NCBI GenBank assembly: GCA_963815195.1
Contig: CAWFGE010000014.1
Span: 32,001 to 96,000 of the forward strand
Direction: 5' to 3'
Length of the DNA: 64,000 bases
Source of the DNA: an uncultured Planctomycetaceae bacterium
GTDB lineage: Bacteria > Planctomycetota > Planctomycetia > Planctomycetales > Planctomycetaceae
Part shown: piece after piece, positions 49,027 to 64,000 of the stretch
How positions within the stretch are numbered: the stretch's first letter is position 1
Layout of the letters: every line of letters begins with the position of its first letter
Notes under the pieces: generated by a model
Databases searched by the model: none
What the model saw: only the letters and a program-made list of their open reading frames with translations
Told to the model about the DNA's origin: nothing
Program-made: the position numbers and the translations under genes

Positions 49027-50652
49027 ATGATGCGATTCTTGGTTGCGTTCGACGTCCCCAGCATTAAGCAGTATGTGTTCGGCACCGACCCTCTGCGGGA
49101 AATTCGCGGGGCGAGCAGCCGGCTGGTCACGCTCAATTGCTATCGAATGAAGTCGGTGCTCATTGAAGAACTCGGGGACGATCAGGTCGATCAGGTTTAT
49201 GCCAACGGGGGGACGGCGCAGTTTATCATCACCGCCAATACTGAAAGCGACGTCGAAGAAGCCTGCCAGAGGCTTGCTGGGGTGTTCCGTGAGGAAACGG
49301 GCGGGGAAGTCGGACTGGTTTGGGGAATCGAAGAGTACCGGGAAAGCGAAGGCGACTATAAACGTGCTGTCCAGCAGGCCCATCGGCGGCTTCGGCAGTG
49401 CCGGGATTCCGCGCGGGACGAGCCAGTTTCCCTTTTGATGCCTTTGGTGGCCGAGTGCAAATCCTCGTCTCACTTGCCGGCTAGCCAGAAGAGTTTGCGG
49501 GATGGACGGTGGCAGTTGATCTCCCGCGCGGTGGAACAAAAAGAGAATGTGCCCCGCGAATCCCTCTGGGAGGCGTGGATGCAATTCGTGAACACCCACT
49601 TCGCTCAAGAAGGTTGGGAAAACGAGAGCCAATGGAAGAATCTCCACTGCGGTGAGTTCTCGGAGTTGGTCGGCCAGGAGAATTCCGACTTGGGGCTGGT
49701 TTATGCCGATGGCAATGCGATGGGCAAGGTCGTGCGAAAGCTCAATACCCCCGAACGCAGCCTGGCATTCAGCGAGATGATCGACCAGAGCGTGCAGCGG
49801 GCGTGTCACCGGGCATTGGCTCAGGTTTGTGGGAAAGACATTGCGCAGCTTCGCCGATCGAACTTTGCCAACGGCAAACTGCGAGCGGAAATTCTCTTGT
49901 TGGGCGGCGACGATCTGTTGGTCGCCTTGCCGGCGGAGCGTGCATTGGCGTTTGCCAAACTTGTGATGGAGGAATTTCAAGCCGAGACCGAAAGCCACCT
50001 CAACACCCTCGATCCGGATTTGCAGAAGTATTTCCGTGCCGATCGACCGTTTTCTCTCTCGTGCGGGGTGGCGATTGGCCGCGTGACCTTTCCCTTTGCG
50101 TTGTTGCTAGAACTGGCCGAGGACTTGCTCAAAGAGGCTAAGCGGTGCGGGACTGCGCAGCAACAGAGCGACCGCACGAGCGTGGCGAGCTTTCTGGACT
50201 TCCATCAGGTCCTGGGCTCGGGCAGCTTGGAACTGGCCACGCTTCGGGACGAGGATTTCCGAATCTCAACCAATAGACCCCGCACCCTGCGACCGTTCCA
50301 GATTACGAAAGGACCGCAAGAATCCCCGGCGGGAGCGGTGGAGTTCAAGCGATTGACGGACGCCGTGGGAATCCTCAAACGGTGTGAGCCGGGCATTCCG
50401 CGGACCAAACTGCACGCCTTGCGGGAGGCGGCGCTGACCGCTTCGGAAGCGAAAGCGGAACAGCGGAGCCGCGAACTGTTTGCCCGTTTGACGGAAAGGC
50501 AACGGCAGGCGCTCTGGAAGGCGATGGCCTGTTTGGATGAAAACGGACGCGTGGAAAATTTCCCCTGGATTTCCTGGCGTGGCAAAACCCCCACGCCCTT
50601 GCCCGACCTCGTGGAAGCATTCGATTTATGGCAATCCTACGACTCGATTTGA
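49027..50652 (+). CDS. cas10: Type III CRISPR large subunit Cas10 (compact, no HD domain)
   Basis: FDVPSIKQYVF...LREIRGAS (Palm1), YADGNAMG, LGGDDL (Palm2), SLSCGVAI...FPF...LAEDLLKEAK. Confidence 0.92.
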   Translation: MMRFLVAFDVPSIKQYVFGTDPLREIRGASSRLVTLNCYRMKSVLIEELGDDQVDQVYANGGTAQFIITANTESDVEEACQRLAGVFREETGGEVGLVWGIEEYRESEGDYKRAVQQAHRRLRQCRDSARDEPVSLLMPLVAECKSSSHLPASQKSLRDGRWQLISRAVEQKENVPRESLWEAWMQFVNTHFAQEGWENESQWKNLHCGEFSELVGQENSDLGLVYADGNAMGKVVRKLNTPERSLAFSEMIDQSVQRACHRALAQVCGKDIAQLRRSNFANGKLRAEILLLGGDDLLVALPAERALAFAKLVMEEFQAETESHLNTLDPDLQKYFRADRPFSLSCGVAIGRVTFPFALLLELAEDLLKEAKRCGTAQQQSDRTSVASFLDFHQVLGSGSLELATLRDEDFRISTNRPRTLRPFQITKGPQESPAGAVEFKRLTDAVGILKRCEPGIPRTKLHALREAALTASEAKAEQRSRELFARLTERQRQALWKAMACLDENGRVENFPWISWRGKTPTPLPDLVEAFDLWQSYDSI

Positions 50653-51395
50653 CGTTTCAGTTGCAATTTGTGACCGACTGGCACGTGGGCAGCGGAGCGG
50701 GTTCCGCTTTGGTGAACCGCCTGCAGGCCCGGCGGCGGATGCGGTCTTGGGGAGAGGTTCCGTTTGTGCCCGGGGCTCAACTCAAAGGCGTACTCAGGCA
50801 ACAGTGCGAACGGTTGGCCCTGGCCCTGAACTTGTCGGATGTGCTCGACCCGCATGACCAGGAGGCCGCATTGGCCGCGCACTTTGTTCCGCTTCCGCAA
50901 TCGCAGATTTTCGTGGATCGCTTGTTTGGGTCCCGTTATCAAGGCGGGTGTTTGTTCCTGAGCGATGCCCTGCCGGTGGACGATCACAGCGACGGGGCGG
51001 TTTCGCCAGGGACAACCGTGCGGCAGCGGACGGCGCTCGATCGGTTGACGGGCACGGTCAAGCATCAGCATCTGTTCGCCACGGAGATCGTCTCCGTATC
51101 TAAGGGGGCTTATGCCGCCCGGTTGCGGGCACGGCATCCCTCCGAGGCCCTGACCCACAATGGGGGAGGTTTGCCGTACGAATACGCTTTGTTGGTGACG
51201 GCGCTGTTGGGCATCGAATCGCTCGGCGGCGACAAAAGTGCCGGCCGCGGTCAGTGCGTGATCACCGTGGATGAGTCGACTTTGAAATGGAATCGCACGC
51301 CGCAATCCCTGGATGCCATGTTGGCCCCCTTCCGAGAGGATGGGTGGCAAGAGTACTACCAACTGATGATCGACGAAAAGACTGGCTCGGAATAA
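50628..51395 (+). CDS. csm3: Cas7-group RAMP (Csm3-like)
   Basis: WHVGSG, VPGAQLKGVLRQQCE, RLFGS, RTALDR, LGGDKSAGRG. Confidence 0.88.
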   Translation: MAILRLDLTFQLQFVTDWHVGSGAGSALVNRLQARRRMRSWGEVPFVPGAQLKGVLRQQCERLALALNLSDVLDPHDQEAALAAHFVPLPQSQIFVDRLFGSRYQGGCLFLSDALPVDDHSDGAVSPGTTVRQRTALDRLTGTVKHQHLFATEIVSVSKGAYAARLRARHPSEALTHNGGGLPYEYALLVTALLGIESLGGDKSAGRGQCVITVDESTLKWNRTPQSLDAMLAPFREDGWQEYYQLMIDEKTGSE

Positions 51396-51490
51396 CCAAT
51401 CGCAAAACGGCAACCGCACGCCTTCTTTACCCTTATTGAGGCGTGCCCTGGCGGAATCAAATCGAAATCTGAACTTGGAAAGCCCTGTTG

Positions 51491-52958
51491 GTGAACCGAT
51501 ATCTCGATCAAAGCCTATTTGGAATCGCCCTTGGCGATCAAACAGTCGCGGCAGTCGCAACGGTCGACGGGCGTGAAATCCATCAGCGGCACCATGCTGC
51601 GGGGGGCACTGGCCCGGTTGTACCTGGATCGCCACGGCTCTGCGGATGAGGGCTTCCGCGAACTGTTCCTGGAAGACAGCGGCTCACGGTTCGGACCGCT
51701 CGATCCCGCTCCGAGGACGCTGCCCCTCACGGCGGCGGCCTGCAAACGGACTCCGGGGTTTTCCAAGGCTGGTCAGCACGGGATGGCCGATCAATTGTGG
51801 TTACGGATCGGCCTTGCCCTCGCCGAACAGGATGGGCGAACCGTACCCATTGACGAATTGGAACAGCCCTTTCTGGATTGCGGCGTCTGTGGGGCCGCGA
51901 TGCGAGACGAACGGGGGTTTTACGAGTGGCACGATCAAACGTATCACGCCAGCCGGACGGATCGGCGGCGGGTGGAGACGCACGTCGGCATCGACCGCCA
52001 CACCATGACGGCGGCTCGGTCCATTTTGTATTCCAATGAAATTCTCGAACCGAACACACCCGTTTTGATCAACTGGATCGTTGCAAGAACAGAGAACGCT
52101 GAGCGGTTACGACAGTTCTTGAAGGGTGAAGATCTCTTTGATTGGTTAGCCAACGACAAATTCAATGCTGCTCGGTTACAACAGTTCTTGAATGGTGAAG
52201 ATCTCATTGATTGGCTCAGAAGCAAGGAAACGAATCCCCGGCAGTTGAAAGGCTTCTTAAAAGGGGAAGACTTGGTTGTGTGGCTCCGCACGCCTCCCCA
52301 GAAGATTAGAGCGTTGATCGAACTGATGGATGTGGAGGATCTCACCGGCTGGATCGAAACCACGGACGACAACGCCCGGCGATTCCAAGAGTTGCTGGAG
52401 GAAGAGGAAAACTGCATTGATGTCGGTCATGCCCGCACGCGGGGTTATGGTCGGGTCCGGTTGGAGTGGGGTGAACCGTTCGCCGCGGCAGGCGAGTCCC
52501 CAACCCGGTGGAACCAGTGGAGCGAGGACCTGAAAGTGTTCCTGAAAAGCGAGCCGTTTCGACTGGAGGGTCCGCAAGTGGAAGGATTTTACTTTTCGTT
52601 GGGATTGCCCTCGGGCGCGATTGTGGTGGATGAGTTGCTGCGCTATTCCCTCGATCCTCGCCAAGCATTGTCTGGGAACCGCCCGGAGATCGAATGCCTT
52701 CTCACGGTCGCCCGGCATGAGCGGGTGCGGGGCTGGAACGCCGCCCACGGATTGCCTCGCCAGGATGAATGGGCCATCGCCCGCGGCAGCGTCTTTGTCT
52801 ATCGCTTCACGGGGGAGGACAAGACGGGTTTGTTCGATTGGTTAAACACCTTGGAACGGGAAGGGCTGGGACTCCGGCAGGGCGAGGGATTTGGCCAAGT
52901 CGAAGTTTCGGCACAATTTCATCGCGATCTTTCCCGGCAGGAAGGAACATCGGCATGA
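51491..52958 (+). CDS. csx10: Csx10-like RAMP (Cas5 group, type III-D) with an internal tandem-repeat insertion; start probably GTG 51491 with an early frameshift
   Basis: ISGTMLRGALA, HVGIDR, VGHARTRGYG, RGWN...LPR, GSVF, GLGLRQGEGFG. Confidence 0.8.
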
Positions 52959-53386
52959 GTCAGTCTATCAGCATCGAACAACAACGGAAACTGGATCGGG
53001 AACTGGAACAGCCCGACCGCCGAGCCGCCTACGAACAACTGGGCGAGGCGCTCTACCGGGCGTTCGGCGGAACAGAGAACGTCAGCACGCAGGTGCGGAA
53101 CCTGCAACAGACTGCCGCCACCGCCCGGCGGTTTGCGGACATCGAAGCCTTCGTGAAAAACCAGATGGGCCGCAACACCAAGGATGCCAAAGCCTGGCGC
53201 GAACCCGGCGTGGGCCAGACCGTACTGGATCAACTGGCCGAACTGCGGGAGATCGCCCGGCAGCATGCCGAGACGGACGAAGACGCCCAAGCCAATCGGT
53301 TTTGGTTGGCCCGGAATTGGGTCCGGGTGGTCGTGGGAGCCTATCTCTACGAGAAAGCCGTGGCGGGAATGCCCTCGGCCCATTAA
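52955..53386 (+). CDS. Cas11/Csm2-like small subunit
   Basis: All-helical 143 aa; STQVRNL...FVKNQMGR...W; ATGA overlap with csx10. Confidence 0.7.
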   Translation: MSQSISIEQQRKLDRELEQPDRRAAYEQLGEALYRAFGGTENVSTQVRNLQQTAATARRFADIEAFVKNQMGRNTKDAKAWREPGVGQTVLDQLAELREIARQHAETDEDAQANRFWLARNWVRVVVGAYLYEKAVAGMPSAH

Positions 53387-53414
53387 ATGCCCTCGGCCCA
53401 TTAGGAGACTTTCC

Positions 53415-54107
53415 ATGCTTCAAGCGGAATGGAATCAGATGGCGGATGATGTGCTGGCCCCGGAGGCGAGGCGATTCTTGAACGAGTGGATCGCTACCGC
53501 CGAGAGCTTGCGCGACCAGGCTCTGCAAAAAGAAGAGGCGGAAATACAGTCGAGAGAGTCCGATCCCGAAAAGGTTGCCAAGCAGTTGGCGAAGCTCGAA
53601 ACGCGCTTGGCGAAGGTAGTGCCTTTTCCGATGGAGCGGAGTCAGATCGTGGGGCTCCGGCAGGTGGCGGTCAATCCGCCATCGCACTGGAACGATCACC
53701 AACCCTCGCTGGTGGCCTCGTTCGCCAATCATCAAAAAGAGAAATTCACACGCAGTTTAAGGAAAGAACAAGACGAGTATGAAAAACGGCGTCCAGGCAA
53801 ATCGTTCAAAGAGGTGATCTTGAAGTCTCAGGATTATTACAGGCAACAATTCTGGGAACGGGTGCGAAAGCTGACCGATCTACAAGACAACCCGCCCGGC
53901 GAATTGATTCAACTGGCTGTCGTCAGGAACTATCTCCCCGCCGAGTACCGGGATGAGGCCATGAAAGAGTTGAGCCGCAAGCAACAACGACTCCGTAAAG
54001 CGGAGCGGGACCGCTGGTTTGGTGAGCAATGGATCCCGCACACGATCCCGATGTTCTTCGAGTACTTTGCGGTCGAGTATTTGTTTGAAGCCGCGAAAGG
54101 GAAGTGA
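53415..54107 (+). CDS. Second Cas11/Csm2-like helical subunit
   Basis: RBS AGGAG; RSQIVGLRQVA...FANHQKEK...FW pattern. Confidence 0.55.
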   Translation: MLQAEWNQMADDVLAPEARRFLNEWIATAESLRDQALQKEEAEIQSRESDPEKVAKQLAKLETRLAKVVPFPMERSQIVGLRQVAVNPPSHWNDHQPSLVASFANHQKEKFTRSLRKEQDEYEKRRPGKSFKEVILKSQDYYRQQFWERVRKLTDLQDNPPGELIQLAVVRNYLPAEYRDEAMKELSRKQQRLRKAERDRWFGEQWIPHTIPMFFEYFAVEYLFEAAKGK

Positions 54108-54223
54108 CAAACGCAAAAAACGAACACGCACCCCACGATGCCCCGGGAAAAGGATGAAAAAGCCGCTTCTTTACCGTTTTGAAGTGGCTCGGGGCATTCA
54201 CGAGAATGGATCAAGGACAAGCA

Positions 54224-55093
54224 ATGACAAACAACACGACCGAGCGGGGGTTTTTCTCCCTGAAGCGAAAAATCCAGATCGAGGGCGAGATCACCTTCAC
54301 CACGCCTTGGCGGATTGGATCGGGTCGCGAGGGCGACATCAGCGATCTGGGAGTCCTGCTCTCTCCCACGGGCGAGCCGGTACTGCCGGGCAGCAGCCTC
54401 AAGGGTGTTTTGCGAAGCACCTGTGAACGATTGGCGTACGTCCTCGGGTTGGAGGCCTGCCAGTTGGACAGCCATTCCGCAGGGCTGTCCTATGTTTGCT
54501 CCAGCGATGTGAAAGCGTTTACCAATTGGAAAAAGGAACATCAAAAGGAATGGGAAAACCTTTCTGGTTTGCCGGCCGCCGAGCGGCTGGATTGGATCGC
54601 CCAGCACACCTGCGATGTCTGCCGGTTGTTCGGGTCGCCTTTGATGAAAAGCGTTTTGAAAATCTCCGACGGCCGACTCTCGGAATGGGCCGGCGTGGTG
54701 GAAGTTCGCGATTCGGTCGTATTGGACCGCGACAGCAAAACCTCGCGGAACAAGTTCGACTTCGATGTGGTCCCGCCGGCCAAGTTCGCCATCCGCTTGG
54801 ATTTGGACAACCCAACCGATGCCGATCTGGCCCTCTTGGGAGCGGGGCTGTTCGAGTGGACGGCGGGCGTGTCCATTGGCGGTTTCACCAGCCGGGGGTT
54901 GGGGCAGGCCGAACTCACCATTACCGGCCTGCGGTCGGCGAACCTTTCCGATCCCAAAGAGCAAACCCAATACCTACTCGGCAAAACCGCCGAGGAAAAG
55001 CTGACTCTCCAGAAGGATTGGGAAGGGGACTTTCAAGAGTTCATCGAAAAGCAGTTGAAGAAAATCAAAGATCAACAAGAAACGCAAGGTTAA
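54224..55093 (+). CDS. Cas7-group RAMP (Csx7/Csm3-like)
   Basis: WRIGSG, LPGSSLKGVLRSTCE, CDVCRLFGS, RDSVVLDRD, IGGFTSRGLG. Confidence 0.88.
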   Translation: MTNNTTERGFFSLKRKIQIEGEITFTTPWRIGSGREGDISDLGVLLSPTGEPVLPGSSLKGVLRSTCERLAYVLGLEACQLDSHSAGLSYVCSSDVKAFTNWKKEHQKEWENLSGLPAAERLDWIAQHTCDVCRLFGSPLMKSVLKISDGRLSEWAGVVEVRDSVVLDRDSKTSRNKFDFDVVPPAKFAIRLDLDNPTDADLALLGAGLFEWTAGVSIGGFTSRGLGQAELTITGLRSANLSDPKEQTQYLLGKTAEEKLTLQKDWEGDFQEFIEKQLKKIKDQQETQG

Positions 55094-55204
55094 GAACGCT
55101 CGGCACAACGCACCCCAAAAAGAGGAAATAAGCCCTTTTTACGGTTTTTGCGGTGCGAGGCCGAACGCCTCGGATGAATAAACCCCAATCAAAAAGGTTC
55201 CTGC

Positions 55205-56161
55205 ATGCTCCGCAAATGGTTTTGTCAGGCTGAGATCACGATTGAGATTCACCCGGTCGATCCGGTTTTGGTGAAAAGCGGGTACGCCACGTTTTCGGGG
55301 CCGGACATGGTTCCCGTGCAAACTCTGCGGGATGGCGAAGAGACGTTCTATCTGCCAGGCACGTCGCTCAAGGGGGTGCTCCGCAGCCATCTGGAGCGGA
55401 TCTGCCGTTCGCTGAAGGAAGGCGTGACGTGTTTGCCGTATTATTTCGATGCGAAGAAAGACGCCCAGAACGTGCCCGTGGCCAGCGAGCAGGGGGCGAT
55501 CAGTTGCGGCAAGCGGTTGGAAGGCGACCGCACCACCGCCGAGATATACCGCCTCAGCTGCCCCGCGTGCCGGGTGTTCGGCTCCCTCAAGTTCAAGGGA
55601 CGAGCCGGGCTTTCGGATGCCTACGCGCTGCCCGACCATAAGCCCGTTCGGGAGGACCGCAACAACGTCTGCATCGACCGCTTTACCGGCGGTGTGGCTC
55701 AGGGACCGTTCGATATGACGGTGCTCGTCGGTGGGGTCTATCGAACCACGCTGCAAATCACCAACTTTGAACTCTGGCAACTGGCGGGGATTCACTTCCT
55801 CTTGGCCGATTTGGAAGATGGCCTGCTCAGCGTGGGCAGCGGGCAAAGCCGCGGCCTGGGCCGGGTGGAAGGGAAAGCCACCAGCTATCGACTGACCTAC
55901 CTGCAAAAGCCGCCGCGGTTGTGCGGGCTATTCCAGTTTGCGACGGCGGAGGAACGCCAAGCCTACGGCCTGTCCGCCGAACCCGGAAATCTGCCCGAGT
56001 TGCCCTCTCCCAAAAGTTCGCGAGGGCTGCGAACAGTCTACGATGTCACCGGCGAGTGGCAAAACTGGACGGAAACCCTGGCGGGCAGTTTCCCCGCGTT
56101 TCTGGATTGGTTCGCCGAGAACGTCGGTCCCCTCGCCAGTCAAATGGAGGTCCCCGCGTGA
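55205..56161 (+). CDS. Cas7-group RAMP (Csm3-like)
   Basis: LPGTSLKGVLRSHLE, CPACRVFGS, IDRFTGG, VGSGQSRGLG. Confidence 0.88.
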   Translation: MLRKWFCQAEITIEIHPVDPVLVKSGYATFSGPDMVPVQTLRDGEETFYLPGTSLKGVLRSHLERICRSLKEGVTCLPYYFDAKKDAQNVPVASEQGAISCGKRLEGDRTTAEIYRLSCPACRVFGSLKFKGRAGLSDAYALPDHKPVREDRNNVCIDRFTGGVAQGPFDMTVLVGGVYRTTLQITNFELWQLAGIHFLLADLEDGLLSVGSGQSRGLGRVEGKATSYRLTYLQKPPRLCGLFQFATAEERQAYGLSAEPGNLPELPSPKSSRGLRTVYDVTGEWQNWTETLAGSFPAFLDWFAENVGPLASQMEVPA

Positions 56162-56748
56162 ACCCGCAGACTGCCATCTTGAAATCCGCCGACCTGAACG
56201 CGGCCGAGAAGGTGTCCGCACTGATTGCGGGTCTTCCCCGGCCGGACCGCCAGCCGCGTTGGGTGTGGCTGGCGGCCCCCGATGGGTGGACGTTGGATTT
56301 TCTCCCCAGCCCGGAAGGCTCGGTCCGCTGGTATGCCGCCCATGCTCGTCCGAAAGATGTTCCCTTGGCCGAGGTGCTGCCTCGCGCGGAGGAAGGGCGG
56401 GTGTTTGATCCCTCGGGCGAATTGCGGTTTCGGCGGTTGCCGCACCCCGGAGGGGCTTCGATTTGGCGGGCGGTCTTTTTGGGGGATGAGGAGTGGTTCC
56501 CCGATTGGGGCCACCCACAAAGCGAACTCGGTGGACTCCGTCGCACCCGCACGGCGTACTACCTCTGGGGTGAGCAAACCCCGCAGACGCCGCGCGAGTG
56601 GGTGGAGTTACAAATCCCGCACCGCTTCGACTACCCCATGTTGGATCCGAATGCCTCGCGGGTGACGCTGGAAGTGGAACTCTGGTGCGACCCCAGCGGG
56701 CGAGTCCACTTCCAACGCTTCTGCGGTCTGCGAGGAGAGGGCCGATGA
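56158..56748 (+). CDS. csx19: Csx19-like type III-D subunit
   Basis: GRVF...ELRF, YYLWGE, ELQIP...DYP, RFCGL pattern; sits just before the last RAMP gene. Confidence 0.7.
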   Translation: MNPQTAILKSADLNAAEKVSALIAGLPRPDRQPRWVWLAAPDGWTLDFLPSPEGSVRWYAAHARPKDVPLAEVLPRAEEGRVFDPSGELRFRRLPHPGGASIWRAVFLGDEEWFPDWGHPQSELGGLRRTRTAYYLWGEQTPQTPREWVELQIPHRFDYPMLDPNASRVTLEVELWCDPSGRVHFQRFCGLRGEGR

Positions 56749-56864
56749 GAAAACGCAAAACGGTAAACGCCCCGCACCACACACCTAAAAAAGGGTAAAG
56801 AAAGGCTTCTTTACCCTTTTTTAGGTGCTTCCCCGAACGCATTGAGAAATCGAAAGGCCGACCG

Positions 56865-58016
56865 ATGCCCCAAGGACAAAGCTACTGGAACCCTTACCGT
56901 TGGGTGCCGATGCCCGACGGCCCGCCGCACCGGCAGACGCCGGCCTATTACCATCGTTTGGAAAACCTGCGGGGCCGCCTCACCTGCGACGTGGAAGCGC
57001 TGACACCGCTTCTGATCGGCGACGGGGGACCGTCGGACAACATCCAATTTGTGAAGACTCCCGGCGGCACGGCGTACGTTCCGGGGACTTCGCTCAAGGG
57101 GATGCTCCGGCAGGTGTTGGAGGTGGTCAGCGGATCGGCGGTGCCGTTCGGTCAGCGGAACAATGCCGATACGAACCATCAAGCCGATCAGGCCAGCGCC
57201 GGTGCCGGATCGAATTGGCAGTTGGACGCCGCCGCCCGGTTGTTCGGCTACATGGACAACAGTCGGTCTTACACAGGAGAGGTCCGGATGGGCGACGCCC
57301 CACTGAAGTCCTCACCCACCCCAGCTTCGGAATGGCCGGCCTACACAGTGGAAACTGGCACGCCCAAACCGACTCACACGGTTTTCTACAAAGGACACGC
57401 CCACGGCCTTGCCAAGTGGAAGTTCTATCACCACGCCACGGGCGCGGAGGGACTCCGGGAAAATTCCACCGTCCCTGAGAACAGCCTTCGGAAGGTCAGG
57501 CCGGCACCGTCGGACAGTCTGTTCGGGCCGTTTACGCTGGCGTTTCAGAACCTGACGGAAGCCGAACTCAACCTGTTGGCCTATGTTCTCGTTCTGGAAG
57601 AGAACGTGACCGTCACCCTCGGCCCCGAGGCGATGGGAACGGAGGAGGGCTGCACCTTGAGCGGACCGCTCCGGCACAAGCTCGGAGCCTGCAAACCGCA
57701 GGGCGGCGGCAGCATTCGGATCGTGCCTCTCCAGATGCAACTCGAAGCCAATCCGCTGGCCCGTTACCAAACCGGGAACCGCCAAGTCCACTCGCTCGAA
57801 GGCGAACCGCTTCAGCAGGAACTCCGCCGGCGGGCCAACCAGGTGGCGAAGCAGATTCCGCAAGCGACCCGCGAAGCTTTTCACGCGATGCTGGTTTACG
57901 ATCCCAACGATCCCCGCGCGAAGCATCTGCAGTATCCCGATTGGGACTTCTTTCAAAATGAGAAACAAAAGTCCAAGCTAGAGACTCCGCTCACGAAACT
58001 CAAACCGACCCTTTAA
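56865..58016 (+). CDS. Cas7-group RAMP with insertion (TIGR03986-like, type III-D terminal subunit)
   Basis: YWNPYRWVP, LTPLLIG, VPGTSLKGMLR, RLFGY, KFYHH, KLGACKPQGGG. Confidence 0.85.
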   Translation: MPQGQSYWNPYRWVPMPDGPPHRQTPAYYHRLENLRGRLTCDVEALTPLLIGDGGPSDNIQFVKTPGGTAYVPGTSLKGMLRQVLEVVSGSAVPFGQRNNADTNHQADQASAGAGSNWQLDAAARLFGYMDNSRSYTGEVRMGDAPLKSSPTPASEWPAYTVETGTPKPTHTVFYKGHAHGLAKWKFYHHATGAEGLRENSTVPENSLRKVRPAPSDSLFGPFTLAFQNLTEAELNLLAYVLVLEENVTVTLGPEAMGTEEGCTLSGPLRHKLGACKPQGGGSIRIVPLQMQLEANPLARYQTGNRQVHSLEGEPLQQELRRRANQVAKQIPQATREAFHAMLVYDPNDPRAKHLQYPDWDFFQNEKQKSKLETPLTKLKPTL

Positions 58017-58036: not shown

Positions 58037-59170
58037 ATGACCACGGCGGCGACCACATTGATTTCCACGGTGGGAACGAGTTTGATCTATCCGAATTTGG
58101 TCAACCTCTCTCCCGACGATCCCGACCCGGCGCGGGCTGCGATTGCAACGGCGTTTGCCCGGCGGGATGCCGCCGCGGTGGCCGAGGGATTGACTCAGTA
58201 TCCGCCTACAGAACGCTTGTTAGGGGCGGAGATCAACTCCATTGCCAGCCTGTGGGAGAAGGGCTACCTGGCCGAATCCCCCAATCTGTTGTTCTGCCAC
58301 AGCCACACCGAAGACGGGCGGTTCCTGGGGGAGGTGTTGACGGCCTACTACCACCGGCGGTCGCTGCCGGTGGTCGAGGCCTGCGAGATCGAAGGCCTGC
58401 AAGATCACGACCCCCGCCAGTTCCGCACGCTGGGTCTGCGGAACCTCACCAAGCAGATTTCGCAGTCGGTGCGGAATTACGGGGCCGATTACACGGCCAT
58501 CAATGCCACCGGCGGTTACAAGGCCCAGATCGCGATTGCCGTGTTGATGGGCCAGGCTCTGGGCGTGCCGGTGTATTACAAGCACGAGCGGTTTTCCGAG
58601 ATCATCGCGTTTCCGCCCTTGCCGGTGGCCTTGGACTTCGGCGTGTGGATGGAGTGCAGCGGGCTGCTCTACGCCCTCGATCAGACGGGCGGCTGCCTGC
58701 CCCGGCGAGAGTTCGAGGAGGAATACAGCGAAACCCTGGCCAGCCTGGTCAACGAAGTCGAGATCGACGGCGAGTGGCACTGGGAACTCTCGCCCACCGG
58801 GCAGATTTTCCACGAGACCTTCCGGGGGCGGTTTCAGGCCCTGGCCCCGAAACTCCTCCCGCCTCCGGCCAAGGAGAAAAAGCCGCCCCGCCTGGAAGAC
58901 AGTGGGCACTTGAAAAGCCACTCGGAGATCCGCGCCTTTCTGGAAAAGGTGACCGCCGAGGTTCCGCAGGTCATCCGCTGCCAAACGCACTACTACAACC
59001 CCGACCTACCCGGCGAGACCCGCTTCCGCTTGAGCACGCACGGCGTCGAAGGCGTCTACAGCAACGGCAGTTACACGGTAAAGTTTTATGTGGAGTCCAC
59101 CGCCACCACTCCCAGCGAACAAACAGCCGTCATCGCCGCGTTAAACCAATGGCTGGCGGAGAGACACTGA
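58037..59170 (+). CDS. APE2256-family CARF protein (ring nuclease/effector type) with a C-terminal extension
   Basis: ISTVGTSL, GAEINS, HSHTEDG, INATGGYKA, YYKHERF. Confidence 0.85.
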   Translation: MTTAATTLISTVGTSLIYPNLVNLSPDDPDPARAAIATAFARRDAAAVAEGLTQYPPTERLLGAEINSIASLWEKGYLAESPNLLFCHSHTEDGRFLGEVLTAYYHRRSLPVVEACEIEGLQDHDPRQFRTLGLRNLTKQISQSVRNYGADYTAINATGGYKAQIAIAVLMGQALGVPVYYKHERFSEIIAFPPLPVALDFGVWMECSGLLYALDQTGGCLPRREFEEEYSETLASLVNEVEIDGEWHWELSPTGQIFHETFRGRFQALAPKLLPPPAKEKKPPRLEDSGHLKSHSEIRAFLEKVTAEVPQVIRCQTHYYNPDLPGETRFRLSTHGVEGVYSNGSYTVKFYVESTATTPSEQTAVIAALNQWLAERH

Positions 59171-59221: not shown

Positions 59222-60153
59222 CTAATCCGGCCATTCTCTCATGAGGCGGCCCAGGCCGAAGACGGTGGATTTGCCCAGGTGCAGCCACTCGGCGGCGGCG
59301 AAGAGGGGGGCCAACGGACCGGGGCCTTGGGGGAGCGGCAGATCGCCGGTGATCGTGGGCAGTTCCAATCGCCGCTTTTGACTGCCGGAGTAGCGGGCAA
59401 ACGACTGGGGTTGTCCTCGGAACGCTCCGGCGGGATGGCGGCGCGCGATTTCTAGCCACGCGGCTTGATCGGCTTTCAAACGGCTGGCGGCTTCCGGAGG
59501 CAGAAAGGCTTCCGCTCGGCGGAGGGTGGCCATCGTTAAATCGACGAAGTTCGGTTCACGGACAAACTGCCGTTGGTAGAACATCCGCAGGCCCCATACA
59601 CGCAGATTGCATGGCCGACGCGGATCAAGATCACCCAAAGGCCACAACCCGAACCCCGGATGTAACCGCCCTGGCGAGAGCGTCGTGCCCTCCCATGCCA
59701 ACGGGCGAACTTCATCCAGAAAGAACGGTGTGCGATCACGACCCAATCCTTGGCAGCCGGTGTGCTCCCAGGCCCGCCACAGCCGATCCTGCTCCTTCGG
59801 AGAGACCTCGCCCATCAAGAGAAACTGCCATCGCGTAATAGGCTCGGACCGCGAGACGACCCCAGCATTAGCGGGCCGCACAATGTACCGCGGCCTCCGG
59901 TCGGGGCCATCTCCGAAGATCGTTTGATAATCCGCAGGAGAGATGCCCGCAGCCGGCTGCCCCACACGCCCCGGAGCTGCACGACCGTCGCCCGATGCCC
60001 CCGCGTGTCCAACCGCATCTCCCACGCCCGCACCCGCACCTGGGCCAACTCGGCCATGAGACGTTTTGTGAGAATCTCGACCGCGGGGACTCGTGCCGCC
60101 CCGTTCGTCTCCGCCGCTTGCCCCCGCCGTCCGTTCGCCAACTCTAATGCCAT
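59222..60153 (-). CDS. cas6: Cas6 pre-crRNA endoribonuclease; frameshift near 59955
   Basis: LRGVWG near the N-terminus, RYSGSQ, and C-terminal G-loop HLGKSTVFGLG. Confidence 0.85.
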
Positions 60154-60559
60154 GATTGCTCCGTTTGTCAGAACCTCCCCAGAATATACGCCTTTCCTTT
60201 CCAAAAAGGGACACCCGGCACAGGAAATTTTAATGAAGACCTGCGGCCGAAAATCGATTCGCTGAGTCTTTCGTCTCCGACATTGGTTTTTTTGTTCCGA
60301 GGGGGCGATCCGCTGCGTATTTCTCTCAGTGGCGGAAGAGCACGACCTTGCGAACTGAGAGCGAACCGAATTTCCGAATCCGAAAAAGGGAGGACAATAA
60401 CATGGACTTGGCTGTGATGATTTGGTGGCTAGGCGGAGAACTTTGGGTGTCGGCCCGCACCCCGGAAAGGAAATTCTTGCCTGGCGGTGGTATTACTGGT
60501 AGGATCGGCCGCAATGAGAATCCGGTGACGCAACACCAGCGATTGCGAGGAGCGACCCG

Positions 60560-61304
60560 ATGGCGGGCCACAAGGCAGACCAAGAGCCAAACCATGGAGC
60601 AGATCACGAGCGGGAGCAGATCCGTCAATGGATCGAGGCGATCCTCGACGGCTCAGGCTCGGAGCACGACGACGCCATGCACCGCCTCTCGGAAGTGATT
60701 AGCCACGTTCGCGGCGCTTGCGGGTGCTCGGTCGCGGCAACCAAATCCTGCGAGATCTCATCGAGGAAGCGCCGTCGGTCATCTTCCAGAAGCTCCGTCA
60801 GTTCGACACCGAGCAGGAGTTCGAGCCGTGGTGTTGGATTGTATTGAAGAACGCCTTTCTGGATCGCTGCCGGAGAAAAAAGACCGACCCGCTCGCCGCG
60901 AGCGGATCGACAAATGCCGAGGACTCGGACCCCATCCAGCGCCTCTCCGACGATGAGGCGGCCGACTTTCGGCGACGACTGGAATCCAGCCTCGACCATA
61001 ACGAACCGTTCTCCGCAACCGATCAGAACGAGATCCTTACCTGGCGTCTCGACGACCGCATCGTATTGCTAACTCTGGGGCTTTTGTGGCAGAAGGTTCC
61101 TCCGGAACTGTGGTCGGACTGGCTCAGCGAGCGGAATGTCCCAGCACTTTTCCGCCTAAGGGTTGGGAGACTGAAACCCTTAAGCAACATTGCGAGATTT
61201 TGGGGGACGCGCTCGGTCAGAACTCTGAGGCGATCAAGCGGCGGTGGTATCGTTATCGGCAATTGCTGTCGAACTTGGAGTACGTGCGGGGGATCCAGCC
61301 ATGA
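60560..61304 (+). CDS. ECF-type RNA polymerase sigma factor; frameshifts near 60710 and 61150
   Basis: Region 2: KLRQFD...FEPWCWIVLKNAFLDRCRR. Region 4: DDRIVLL...[insert]...EILGDALGQNSEAIKRRWYRYR. RBS AGGAG before ATG 60560. Confidence 0.75.
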
Positions 61305-62017
61305 CCCAATCCTCTCAACCACAAGGGACGATCTGGCAGGGACTTCGCGACCCGCGTTCCGACTGTGGGAAGGCCGGTGCGGTCACGATGCCGCGATCTA
61401 GTTGGCAGCACACAGCCGAGCGGCATATTTGCCGATCGGTCGAGCCATGGGACGAAGTATTTCCCGCAGAGATTGTGACGGCCCTGCAACGATTCGGACG
61501 AAACCAGGAAACACTGAGTTGCGAGCAGTGGGAGATCGCTTCGAACCTGCTCGGTGAGCAGGTTCGGCAGTCCCTGGATCGGCCTTTGGTGATTCTGTAT
61601 CTGCAACGCCAGTTCTACCAGGACGAACCCTATGCCGAGCGTTGGCTGCTTCTGTTACCTTGCGGCGGGCTGATGGCGATCCGTAGCGTCCAGCATGGCG
61701 GCAGCGTCCTGACGTGCTTTTTCATGGAGCAGTCTGGTCGCGGCCATCAGCTTGACAACCGCTGGAAGTATGCGTTGTTCTTCCTAAGAAACAAATACTC
61801 CGAACAGGATCCTAAGACAGGGCGACGGCATCCGCCCCACCCTGCCTATGCCGTTCCGATCCCTCGCCGGTTGGCCGACGAGGACCGCGCCGAGATTTGT
61901 TTTGTCACGGAACACGAGTGGCACCTGCCGGGTCCGGCTCGGCTCGAAACGAATATGCTGCGCCCGTGGCCGACCCACGAGAAGGACACGACCCGTTCGG
62001 GCGCCGGCCGTGGATGA
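61301..62017 (+). CDS. Hypothetical protein (238 aa), translationally coupled to the sigma gene
   Basis: ATGA overlap with the sigma stop codon; no recognised family. Confidence 0.7.
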   Translation: MTQSSQPQGTIWQGLRDPRSDCGKAGAVTMPRSSWQHTAERHICRSVEPWDEVFPAEIVTALQRFGRNQETLSCEQWEIASNLLGEQVRQSLDRPLVILYLQRQFYQDEPYAERWLLLLPCGGLMAIRSVQHGGSVLTCFFMEQSGRGHQLDNRWKYALFFLRNKYSEQDPKTGRRHPPHPAYAVPIPRRLADEDRAEICFVTEHEWHLPGPARLETNMLRPWPTHEKDTTRSGAGRG

Positions 62018-62048
62018 AGCCTAAAGACACCGAGTGAGAACCTCAGCG

Positions 62049-63100
62049 ATGACTGACCGAAGATCGAATCTGCCAGACGATGAAGCCGCATTCCGGCGCG
62101 ATGAAGTGGAGCAAGCCTACGCGCTCCCGGGGCTAGACGTCTTCGATCACGGGGGGCCAGTCGATGACGCCGTGCGCAAGAGCGGCGCTTCAATTGGCCC
62201 AAGCGATCGGGTACTGCCGGCTGTTCGGAGTCGAGATTGGCGAACTCGATGGCGTGCTCCCGGCGGACGTGGCCATCGCAGCGTGCCGGGAACTCGCCGA
62301 TCGGGTAGCCGCCTGGACAGAGCAACTCCAGGAACTGCCAGAACGGTATTTCGGAGCAATCGACGGATTCGAGGCCGAAGCGGCCTCCGACGACGTGTTG
62401 ATCGCCTGCATGGACTCGTGGGCGACCACCGCGGCGATCGAGGAAGCCTACACGCGCTGTGGGCCGGAGGACGACGTCGATACATTCTCCGCCGAATTGG
62501 ACCGGCTTGGGGACGCCCTGGACGAGTTTGACCGAAAGGCCCGCGAGCACGCCGACTTGTTGTCCACGCTCGCGAAGACCAACCTCTTGTCGAACTGGCG
62601 GTCGTATCTCGTCGAGCCGTGGAGTGAATTGCTGCCCTGGTGGCTGGATGGAACGCTTGAACGAACGGCTGAGGCCGTCGACCAGCTGGTGGCGGCCACC
62701 GTACCCGGTGAGTCCGACCGCCGTGCGGAGAAGGCCCGAGACCGATCCCAGATCACCGGCCCGAGCCCGCCTTGCGCCCGCGATGGCCGCTGCCGGTCCT
62801 TTGGAAGCCGGCAAAACCTATTCCTGGGATTCTCCAGATGGACGGTACCAGGCATTGCTCACGCTGACCACGACTTGGCAGGAGACGGTTCGGCTCGGGT
62901 TTGTGCACCGCGAGAGCGGAGCACCGACCGCCGAACTCAAGGGCCGCAAGGCCCGACTCGGCGATTTGCCGCCGGTGCCCATCGACGACAAGGGCCTCGC
63001 AGAGTTCGCCACCGCGTCGGTTCTTGGGCAGCCGTCGCGACTGCATCTCGATGAGGACGATCGAAACTGGACGCCCGTTGGACCGGAAGACAGTCTGTAA
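62049..63100 (+). CDS. Two-domain protein (~350 aa): acidic helical N-domain, linker, beta-rich C-domain; candidate anti-sigma/protease substrate; frameshifts near 62175 and 62708
   Basis: Joined from ORFs 62034, 62164 and 62459; NWRSYLVEPWSELLPWWLDG, linker RLAPAMAAAG, then YSWDSPDGRYQALLTL... Confidence 0.6.
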
Positions 63101-63166
63101 TCCGCTGGTGGAAAGCTGGCTCCATCGGATCCGGCAAGTTCTGACCTTAGCTTGTTTGGATGCGCC

Positions 63167-64000
63167 ATGGCCGTCACTTGGCTGAACCGATCATCTGCGG
63201 ACTTGACCCCGGCTGCCGCCTGCCAGCTTGTCGAGTGGCTCGGTCCCTTCGCGACTTGGTGTCTTCAGGCGGACACTTTAAACAAAGCCGCGGCCTCCTA
63301 CCGCCATCGCGGTGTGGCGGTCCTGGCCGAAGCGCTTGAGAAGCCGTGTGGACTGCCCCAGGAGCCGGGAACGTGCGGCGTTCTGTTCGTCCGCAAACGA
63401 AACGACTACCCCGGCCTGCGGGATGCCTTCGCCTGGCCGCTCCGATGGGTCGCCGAGGCGGAGCATGAACGAGTTCTCCCGGTAAAGTTACTGGCCGAGG
63501 CCGAGCGGGTTCGCGAGACGCTGATCCAGCAACTGGGTGATCTGTTGCCGACAGAGCGCTGGGGACTGCGGCCGGGGCTTGGCGGACCAGCCGACTGGCC
63601 TGACCTCCGGCACATGGACGTTTCCTGTGACTCGGCCTGGGTCCCGCTGGCGGGCGGTCTCCTCGCCGCGTCTCTGGAGGGACAGGTCGACCGCACAGTC
63701 TGGGCCACAGGAGCCTGGCAGGGCGGCATCGCAGCGGTCGGCTTTCTGCCGGACAAGCTCCGGGAAGCCGTCCGCCTGGCCGTACAGCGCGTGTTTGTGC
63801 CGACACAAAATCTCGACGAAGCCCATCAACTGGTCGAATCACACAACCTCGACCTGTCGATCGGGGAGTTGCGGCACGACAAACCTCAAGCGGCCGAAGC
63901 GCTCGGGCAATTCCTGGAGGAGTTTTCTGTCCTGCCGCCCCGCATCCCCGACGATGCGGAGAATTTCGAGCGACGTTGCCGCGCGTATCTCCGTCATCCA
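63167..64000 (+). CDS. Lon (S16)-type Ser-Lys protease domain protein, 3' partial; not in the ORF track
   Basis: Hand translation is open to the window end: SCDSAWVPLAGGLLAA...VWATGAW...IAAVGFLPDKLREA...VFVPTQN, matching Lon GxSA...TG...VGG..K..A...iP..N. Ser codon at 63632, Lys codon at 63755. Confidence 0.8.
   Translation, partial: MAVTWLNRSSADLTPAAACQLVEWLGPFATWCLQADTLNKAAASYRHRGVAVLAEALEKPCGLPQEPGTCGVLFVRKRNDYPGLRDAFAWPLRWVAEAEHERVLPVKLLAEAERVRETLIQQLGDLLPTERWGLRPGLGGPADWPDLRHMDVSCDSAWVPLAGGLLAASLEGQVDRTVWATGAWQGGIAAVGFLPDKLREAVRLAVQRVFVPTQNLDEAHQLVESHNLDLSIGELRHDKPQAAEALGQFLEEFSVLPPRIPDDAENFERRCRAYLRHP

Follow-up and report, generated by a model that had tools for sequence, protein, structure and literature searches.

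How a type III-D CRISPR locus might pass its signal on to the transcription machinery is the question raised by the last genes of a 64,000-nucleotide stretch of the genome of an uncultured Planctomycetaceae bacterium (the window, G000:C14:32001-96000; the DNA past its end was retrieved as L002). Four co-directional, tightly packed genes on the + strand (60560-64561, from open reading frame (ORF) calls and three-frame translation), divergent from cas6, encode a sigma factor resembling the extracytoplasmic function (ECF) type, two proteins here called g2 and g3, and a Lon-type protease, Lon-CARF, an arrangement that an earlier note on this DNA had already read correctly. The logic of this module is closest to that of CalpL/T/S (CalpL-CalpT-CalpS), reportedly described by Rouillon et al. 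in 2023 as a type III SAVED-Lon protease, an anti-sigma and an ECF-like sigma. The module is probably a CARF-based variant of CalpL/T/S, in which Lon-CARF, once activated by a cyclic oligoadenylate (cOA), would cut g3 and set sigma free. What the analysis shows is its gene order, its domains, the conservation of the sigma-g3-Lon-CARF trio, a motif in g3 and a binding model that passed.

Lon-CARF is a full-length member of the PADLOC family CARF_m2--CARF_LON (PDLC01981; 3.8e-87, 291.4 bits, residues 10-446 on profile positions 9-400 of 408), with the N-terminal, Lon and CARF domains of that family, and has weak Pfam matches to Lon_C and CARF_Card1. A seven-sequence profile compared with Protein Data Bank (PDB) sequences matches the archaeal LonB protease domain (2.3e-08), with the catalytic serine and lysine aligned, and also the CARF domains of Cam1 (9.4e-07), Csm6 (2.6e-05), Crn1, Can2 and Card1; the nucleotide sensor that the proposal of the earlier note called for is therefore present on the protease, as a CARF domain. 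S161 and K202 are invariant in the seven sequences and 41 residues apart, the same spacing as that of the CalpL dyads S152-K193 and S154-K195 given in the part consulted of bioRxiv 10.1101/2024.05.08.593097. Like CalpL, Lon-CARF thus joins an ATPase-less Lon domain with a Ser-Lys dyad to a cOA-type sensor. CalpL ends in SAVED4 (two fused CARF-like halves), and its activation and assembly into filaments depend on cyclic tetra-adenylate (cA4). In Lon-CARF, by contrast, the C-terminal ~120 residues match single CARF domains (Pfam CARF_Card1, PADLOC CARF models and the five proteins just named), which would imply ligand binding of the dimer type, not of the filament type. The 60 best PDB sequence matches of the Lon-CARF profile do not include CalpL, and neither CalpL nor CalpT came up when Lon-CARF was compared with PDB sequences by phmmer and profile search. 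The PADLOC, LonB and single-CARF profile matches and the dyad spacing identify Lon-CARF as a Lon protease whose sensor is CARF and not SAVED.

The Lon-CARF family itself had already been catalogued bioinformatically before this analysis. A review treats CARF-Lon, in the sections consulted, as a bioinformatic prediction, speculates on host killing by proteolysis that is promiscuous or directed at essential targets, and in those sections makes no mention of sigma, g3 or g2 partners (PMC9704534). A literature search, outside which the original CARF classification (Makarova et al. 2020) lay, found no paper describing the sigma-g2-g3-Lon-CARF module. The suggestion of the earlier note that this is a hybrid not recognised as described holds to this extent for the module, but not for its protease family.

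The predicted substrate is g3, the "62049 protein" of the earlier note. The middle piece of the window g3 is 41% identical to an intact 365-amino-acid (aa) orthologue in genome G330, and 20 homologues were found, for which every source name given is "hypothetical protein". The g3 model (predicted local distance difference test (pLDDT) 82.9, predicted template modelling score (pTM) 0.64) consists of a helical domain (residues 22-240), a disordered segment (243-265) and a C-terminal beta domain (277-367) of ~90-100 aa and ~10 kDa, and is of a soluble type with no long hydrophobic helix. An xAA dipeptide (for example IALAAD or LAVAAD; AMAAAG in the window) stands at a fixed offset before a W.SPD motif in 19 of 22 g3 sequences, and in the model it falls at the end of the disordered linker, between the helical and beta domains. 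By sequence motif, g3 thus resembles CalpT in having an alanine-rich stretch between two parts that could leave an ...AA end. CCaCalpL cuts CCaCalpT in LAA/A (cut at the slash), giving pieces of 24.3 and 10.9 kDa, and the LAA end is a degron needed to free CalpS, according to the portion consulted of bioRxiv 10.1101/2024.05.08.593097. A hidden Markov model (HMM) of the g3 C-domain recognises the partner protein of a III-B locus (L025, 1.6e-09) and an HMM of the g3 N-domain does not, which suggests that a constant part, with docking and cut site, is coupled to a cargo part that varies.

In its N-domain g3 departs from CalpT: that of g3 is all-helical (22-240), with no Pfam MazF/PemK match, whereas that of CalpT is MazF-like. 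Pfam finds no match in g3 to DUF2080, the C-terminal domain by which CalpT docks on its protease; the C-domain of g3 is a beta domain of ~90 residues. In a wide VIA fold search with g3 the matches were three-helix bundles of a generic kind (spectrin repeats the best, at Z 8.2) and, for the C-domain, CrdA as the best match (Z 6.3); the g3 list shows no CalpT, Csx30 or anti-sigma entry, although the listing does not exclude them. A zf-HC2 cluster found at 0.77 in the ESM Atlas was set aside as chance level, nothing reaching 0.9 for g3 or g2.

The sigma gene has been recognised through its region 2. The middle piece of the window sigma reaches 22.5 bits with Pfam Sigma70_r2, below the cut-off of 24, against 35.4, 37.2 and 28.1 bits for the intact orthologues of loci L021, L028 and L030, respectively; TIGR02937 scores 43.8 on the L021 sigma (cut-off 42.9). 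Binding of this sigma by g3 is supported by one three-chain ESMFold2 job, in which g2, g3 and sigma of L028 were modelled together, with sigma scored as the partner, beside three controls. The interaction prediction score from aligned errors (ipSAE) was 0.81 for sigma and 0.00 for the best control; of 157 solved complexes 116 attain 0.81, as do 2 of 215 mismatched pairs, counts that apply roughly here because this job is unlike the calibration jobs. Agreement between the runs is at least 65% of contacts, the partner pLDDT is at least 74, and the confident contacts link g3 107-235 to sigma 38-103 (region 2) and 202-229 (C-terminal region), fewer involving g2. When g3 was replaced and g2 kept, the ipSAE was 0.00. 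The contact between sigma and a partner envisaged in the earlier note is thus supported at the level of a model, in which the g3 N-domain is predicted to hold the cognate sigma, as the N-part of CalpT does.

Loci were drawn from 401 genomes of the phylum, from a genome collection (5 loci) and from metagenomes (25 loci), and were screened with HMMs built from intact copies. The Lon-CARF model matches in 18 of the 401 genomes, in six over most of its length (G000, G330, G282, G082, G210 and G135); a word-based homologue search for Lon-CARF gave four proteins. Where a metagenome locus has both a Lon-domain match and upstream DNA, as 19 do, the ORF directly upstream of Lon-CARF carries the g3 C-domain in every case (of the remaining six, two are without upstream DNA and four match the CARF part alone), and sigma is present in all 12 metagenome loci with more than ~600 bases upstream. 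Among the 401 genomes g3 was found in G000, G330 and G282 alone, each time beside Lon-CARF. Sigma, g3 and Lon-CARF are found together in 19 loci, several of which are near-duplicates of one lineage, so that the loci are not independent. Type III cas or CARF ancillary genes adjoin eleven of the 19: eight have cas genes of type III-D or III-B as neighbours (G000, L025, L027, L028, L053, L054, L056 and L064) and three have CARF ancillary genes alone (L051, L058 and L063), the other eight having neither in the available flank (L021, L029, L030, L045, L046, L048, L050 and L061). The module is not tied to III-D. Cas10 is present in the genomes of G330, L030, L029 and L028 and none was matched in that of L026 (five genomes checked); for modules with no flanking cas gene, or with cas1 alone, three of the four genomes searched have Cas10 elsewhere.

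The interpretation advanced in the earlier note, in which cOA dependence and cleavage are predictions, is supported by these results. It had named three findings as fatal to itself, namely a protease with no nucleotide sensor and no cOA dependence, a sigma that does not interact with its partner, and homologous modules located mostly away from type III cas genes; none of the three was encountered.

Genes for a sigma factor and an anti-sigma could also act upstream of immunity, as a stress-responsive ECF pair that switches on the CRISPR genes, with Lon-CARF providing feedback or acting on another substrate. Such a pair, DdvS/DdvA of Myxococcus, has been published as a regulator of a CBASS-CRISPR island (PMC11506125, in the part consulted), and the module here is divergent from cas6 and stands just before cas2-cas1 and a reverse transcriptase (RT) gene. 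The arrangement in other genomes makes this explanation very improbable: g3 never occurs apart from Lon-CARF in the genomes searched, and the trio is also found far from cas genes. The g3 protein moreover carries the CalpT-like xAA motif and is soluble by model.

In the CalpL/T/S-like reading, Cas10 (GGDD, no HD domain), the presumed signal source of the locus, would make cOA upon binding target RNA. The CARF domain of Lon-CARF resembles sensors that we take to be responsive to cA4, so that cA4 would be the likeliest species. The sharing of one signal that is usual among co-resident effectors, according to the part consulted of PMC11229360, points the same way. The cOA would bind the C-terminal CARF domain, as family membership indicates, and the Ser-Lys Lon domain would then cut g3 in the xAA motif, which is suggested by the motif itself, the strict adjacency of the genes and the precedent of CalpT; the ~10-kDa C-domain of g3 would be the docking part for the protease. 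By analogy, the new ...AA C-terminus may be a degron through which the sigma-binding N-domain of g3 is degraded, and the freed ECF-like sigma would redirect transcription. A similar step ends the RseA/sigma-E pathway (VAA degron, ClpXP), in which cutting of the anti-sigma exposes a C-terminal Ala-Ala degron and degradation of the fragment frees an ECF sigma; unlike that pathway, which depends on DegS and RseP, the one predicted here would be soluble, cytoplasmic and gated by CARF-Lon, with a putative degron.

Several points weigh against this reading. Pfam finds no region-4 domain in sigma or in the orthologues examined. Sequence comparison links g3 neither to CalpT nor to any Pfam, NCBIfam, PADLOC or PDB entry, and no fold match rises above noise, Foldseek against PDB returning nothing at E <= 0.001. 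The binding job, with three chains, alignments of its own and a sigma alignment of six usable rows, is unlike the calibration set. No cas or CARF gene is present in the available flank at 8 of the 19 loci, and in G330 the Cas10 gene is ~267 kb from the module. Sigma and g3 each have two frame breaks in the window, whereas the five compared cas genes, Lon-CARF, cas1, cas2 and RT have none; breaks grouped in this way would be expected from real decay and equally from a local fault in the assembly.

The earlier note had suspected frameshifts, and they are real features of this sequence, two each in sigma and g3. Sigma is read in frame 2, then 1, then 0, with breaks near 60700-60740 and 61131-61170, and g3 passes through frames 0, 1 and 2 in that order, breaking near 62184 and near 62750-62790; alignment of the intact G330 orthologues bridges the broken frames of both (tblastn; the G330 sigma matches two frames). 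Programmed frameshifting was dropped as an explanation because intact orthologues read in one frame. With sigma and g3 broken in frame, the window copy of the module may be inactive in its assembled form. It is possible, though less likely than not, that the module is a decaying remnant here, the breaks in sigma and g3 and an altered g2 tail being real mutations, with the protease alone intact and no signalling. The five frame-changing differences (in sigma, g3 and the g2 tail) all fall within 60.7-62.8 kb and none in Lon-CARF, cas1, cas2 or RT; five of six L028 cas proteins can be aligned to the window without a change of frame, and long ORFs (929-1290 aa) in other parts of the window run through without a break. 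Of the four break regions (two in sigma, two in g3), three lie away from any obvious long homopolymer.

The sequencing reads speak against decay. Two 151-base contigs from run X1 match the window over their full length, bar one gap and one other letter plus one gap, respectively, and differ from it by changes in the length of G runs, one having an extra G after 61998 and the other one base fewer at 62184. The extra G moves the g2 stop to 62035-62037, where it overlaps the GTG start of g3 as GTGA, and gives g2 the basic-acidic tail seen in its homologues; the base loss joins the conserved N-terminus of g3 to its body. Each difference is carried by a single contig at a depth of 2.6-2.9, possibly itself erroneous, and two of the five break sites are covered; the matching DNA sequencing runs have shares of at most 0.13 each, no RNA run was listed as matching, and X3 and X4 gave short, unlike pieces. 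Assembly errors are somewhat favoured over real decay as the source of the breaks.

The remaining gene, g2, is the optional partner. A profile search for g2 found 296 clusters at E <= 0.001, and no match was obtained in Pfam, NCBIfam, PADLOC or, by phmmer and profile, PDB sequences. In its model (pLDDT 72.4), residues 9-166 form a core of beta-alpha-alpha-alpha-beta4-alpha topology. The wide VIA search gave 101 chains at Z >= 2, the best at Z 5.5 (7vd7_A, rmsd 3.2, 84 residues), which is below the Z of 7-8 typical for models without a true match, and Foldseek against PDB found nothing at E <= 0.001. The composition of the VIA list is nonetheless consistent, 33 of the top 37 rows being RelE, ParE, BrnT, YoeB, HigB, YafQ, MqsR, CdiA-CT or colicin D entries; the RelE/ParE fold is a weak lead rather than a fold assignment. 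Cami1 (CARF-RelE) is also among the matches, at Z 2.9, and Cami1-type genes occur in the related loci L058 and L063, but g2 differs from Cami1 and RelE/ParE in having no CARF domain, no RelE/ParE sequence match and a large helical insertion. Of the 19 loci with sigma, g3 and Lon-CARF, g2 is clear in nine, weak in three, absent in five (where sigma abuts g3) and ambiguous in two; in the 401 phylum genomes it is found in G000 and G330 alone, within the module.

These data bear on an alternative output, in which cutting g3 would free g2 as a RelE/ParE-fold ribonuclease, or a toxic g3 fragment, for growth arrest by abortive infection, sigma being secondary or autoregulatory. Toxin-antitoxin, contact-dependent inhibition and colicin D entries make up the 33 rows just mentioned, His, Glu, Arg and Trp positions are invariant across 28 g2 sequences, and g2 is confined to the module in the 401 genomes searched. 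In III-E, moreover, a fragment of Csx30 is toxic and Csx31 modulates, according to the part consulted of bioRxiv 10.1101/2022.08.17.504292. Toxin release as the main output is nevertheless unlikely: no locus with sufficient upstream DNA lacks sigma, whereas g2 is absent from 5 of 19, with sigma, g3 and Lon-CARF directly adjoining there, and so cannot be the core output, and the low best Z and the empty Foldseek result also speak against this reading. With sigma release retained as the preferred output, g2 may be an accessory third partner of a sub-clade, perhaps with a RelE fold and a role as toxin or adaptor.

Two known systems frame the comparison. With CalpL/T/S the module shares, besides the protease architecture, a two-domain partner and an ECF-like sigma encoded alongside in type III loci, the partner having its alanine-rich motif between a large N-part (the predicted sigma holder) and a ~10-kDa C-part; it differs in that sequence similarity was found in none of the three protein pairs and in that a sub-clade, including the window, adds a fourth gene, g2. 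For the predicted anti-sigma g3 and the accessory protein g2, no relatives were found among known families. The likeness to III-E (Csx29/Csx30/Csx31/RpoE-CASP-sigma) drawn in the earlier note holds for the architecture of a sigma with two partner proteins. The N-domain of Csx30 binds sigma, its small C-domain is removed by the cut, and Csx31 modulates (bioRxiv 10.1101/2022.08.17.504292, in the part consulted). Homology to Csx30, Csx31 or CASP-sigma, however, was not found, and g2 is optional: NCBIfam NF041236 (CAS_III-E_sigma) gives sigma 26.8 and 15.8 bits against a cut-off of 100, and g3 and g2 have no NCBIfam or PADLOC match to Csx30 or Csx31 at E <= 1 (the presence of Csx30/Csx31 models in these libraries being unchecked) and none among the VIA fold matches. 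The protease here is Lon, whereas in III-E it is CHAT (Csx29, TPR-CHAT); a diffusible signal acting on CARF is the predicted activator, in place of the direct contact between protease and effector complex; and the effector complex is a multi-subunit one, of type III-D or III-B.

The protease arms of type III signalling worked out so far are few (CalpL/T/S, SAVED-CHAT and Craspase). The CARF-Lon family now gains a testable circuit, made up of a defined family of substrates, the probable site of the cut with its degron, a sigma of its own and a third partner that is optional, for which the intact orthologues L028 and G330 are ready templates for biochemistry. The comparison suggests that relays from cOA to sigma have been assembled more than once, from anti-sigma proteins without detectable similarity. 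A small-molecule-gated soluble protease with a short recognisable tag is also a possible tool. More speculatively, and somewhat doubtfully, the g3 C-domain with its xAA cut site and degron may be a portable tag that puts varied N-terminal cargos under cOA control, such that in the g2 sub-clade one cut releases both an ECF-like sigma and a RelE-fold g2. If so, the module would be a dual-output switch, combining a transcriptional programme (sigma) with translational arrest (g2); the cassette would unite the logic of CalpL/T/S, Craspase Csx30/31 and Cami1, and would serve III-D or III-B or act in trans from elsewhere in the genome.

The features of the locus are listed in the table. The part of Lon-CARF within the window (63152..64000) comprises the N-terminal domain and the Lon Ser-Lys domain, the CARF domain being beyond the window end.

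Table. Features of the module and of the adjoining III-D locus; positions are those of the window, and positions above 64000 are window-equivalent coordinates read from L002.
Feature	Position	Strand	Evidence and remarks
ECF-like sigma gene	60560..61304	+	three-frame translation, read in 3 frames
g2, 238 aa, family without name	61301..62017	+	ORF, alignments
g3, predicted anti-sigma/protease substrate	62034..63100	+	three-frame translation, read in 3 frames
Lon-CARF protease	63152 (or ATG 63167)..64561 (L002 4152-5561)	+	PADLOC PDLC01981; runs past window end
cas6	59222..60214	-	Pfam CRISPR_Cas6 26.9 bits (cut-off 25); PADLOC Cas6 2.3e-27
CARF7--DUF2103 effector, second cOA-type effector of the locus	58037..59170	+	PADLOC PDLC01930 2.4e-122; NCBIfam TIGR02619 62.1 bits
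cas10, 543 aa	49021..50652	+	PADLOC Cas10 2.6e-68; GGDD at residue 295
Other III-D effector genes	50628..58016	+	PADLOC: Csm3, Csx10/Cas5-IIId, Csm2, unknown ORF, Cas7, Cas7, Csx19, Cas7/Csm5-like

The stop codon of sigma overlaps the g2 start as ATGA, and this overlap and the GTGA of g2/g3 in the short contig version link the genes into an operon. A scan of the spacer between cas6 and sigma for sigma-70-type promoters found 0 against 0.3 expected, no search for an ECF promoter motif having been made. The III-D-like operon and the Cas10 with GGDD and no HD domain, both noted previously, were borne out by PADLOC and by the N-terminus of Cas10, which begins directly in the cyclase/Palm part. On the 3' side, Lon-CARF is followed by cas2, cas1, a group-II-intron-type RT gene and then an array of ~48 repeats of 37 nucleotides; with the III-D operon on one side and cas2-cas1-RT and the array on the other, the module is embedded in the CRISPR locus, not just adjoining it. 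The CARF7--DUF2103 effector is related to the CARF-RelE (Cami1) models and differs from them in its C-terminal part. Within the III-D operon the Csm2-like ORF (52769-53386) overlaps a 307-aa ORF (53184-54107), either through a frame break or as a separate gene. Directly after the array are two paralogous proteins of ~235 aa (L002:13130-14607 = 72130-73607), each with a C-terminal cold-shock (CSD/S1-like) domain.

Lon-CARF also occurs in other settings. An orphan Lon-CARF (L026:6896-8287, 7.7e-116) has neither g3 nor sigma upstream. At L053:1347-9360, and also in L054, two sigma-g3-Lon-CARF modules in tandem, neither with g2, separate cas6 from a complete III-B operon (Cmr1, Cas10, Cmr3, Cmr4 and Cmr6). 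An 1118-aa ORF of genome G135 (L023:7827-11183, - strand) fuses Lon-CARF (PDLC01981 1.4e-25, residues 155-539) to Cas10 (6.4e-53, residues 566-1016), so that sensor-protease and signal synthase would be one polypeptide; three ORFs of 317-404 aa with no function assigned are upstream of it. In G210 a 690-aa Lon-CARF (L022:9090-11162) is fused to a C-terminal Csx16 domain (7.4e-31), in a III-D locus that also encodes a 963-aa RT-Cas1 fusion and a CARF-TM effector. An 1136-aa ORF (L058:5756-9166) matches Lon-CARF at residues 43-463, its C-terminal ~670 residues matching nothing in PADLOC at E <= 1e-6, and has a Cami1-like CARF7-RelE gene upstream. In L059:712-2566 and L060:2128-3982 a gene for a sigma of this family is directly 5' of the gene for a ~320-aa protein matching the CARF part of Lon-CARF alone (query residues 265-440), possibly a protease-less CARF-sigma pair.

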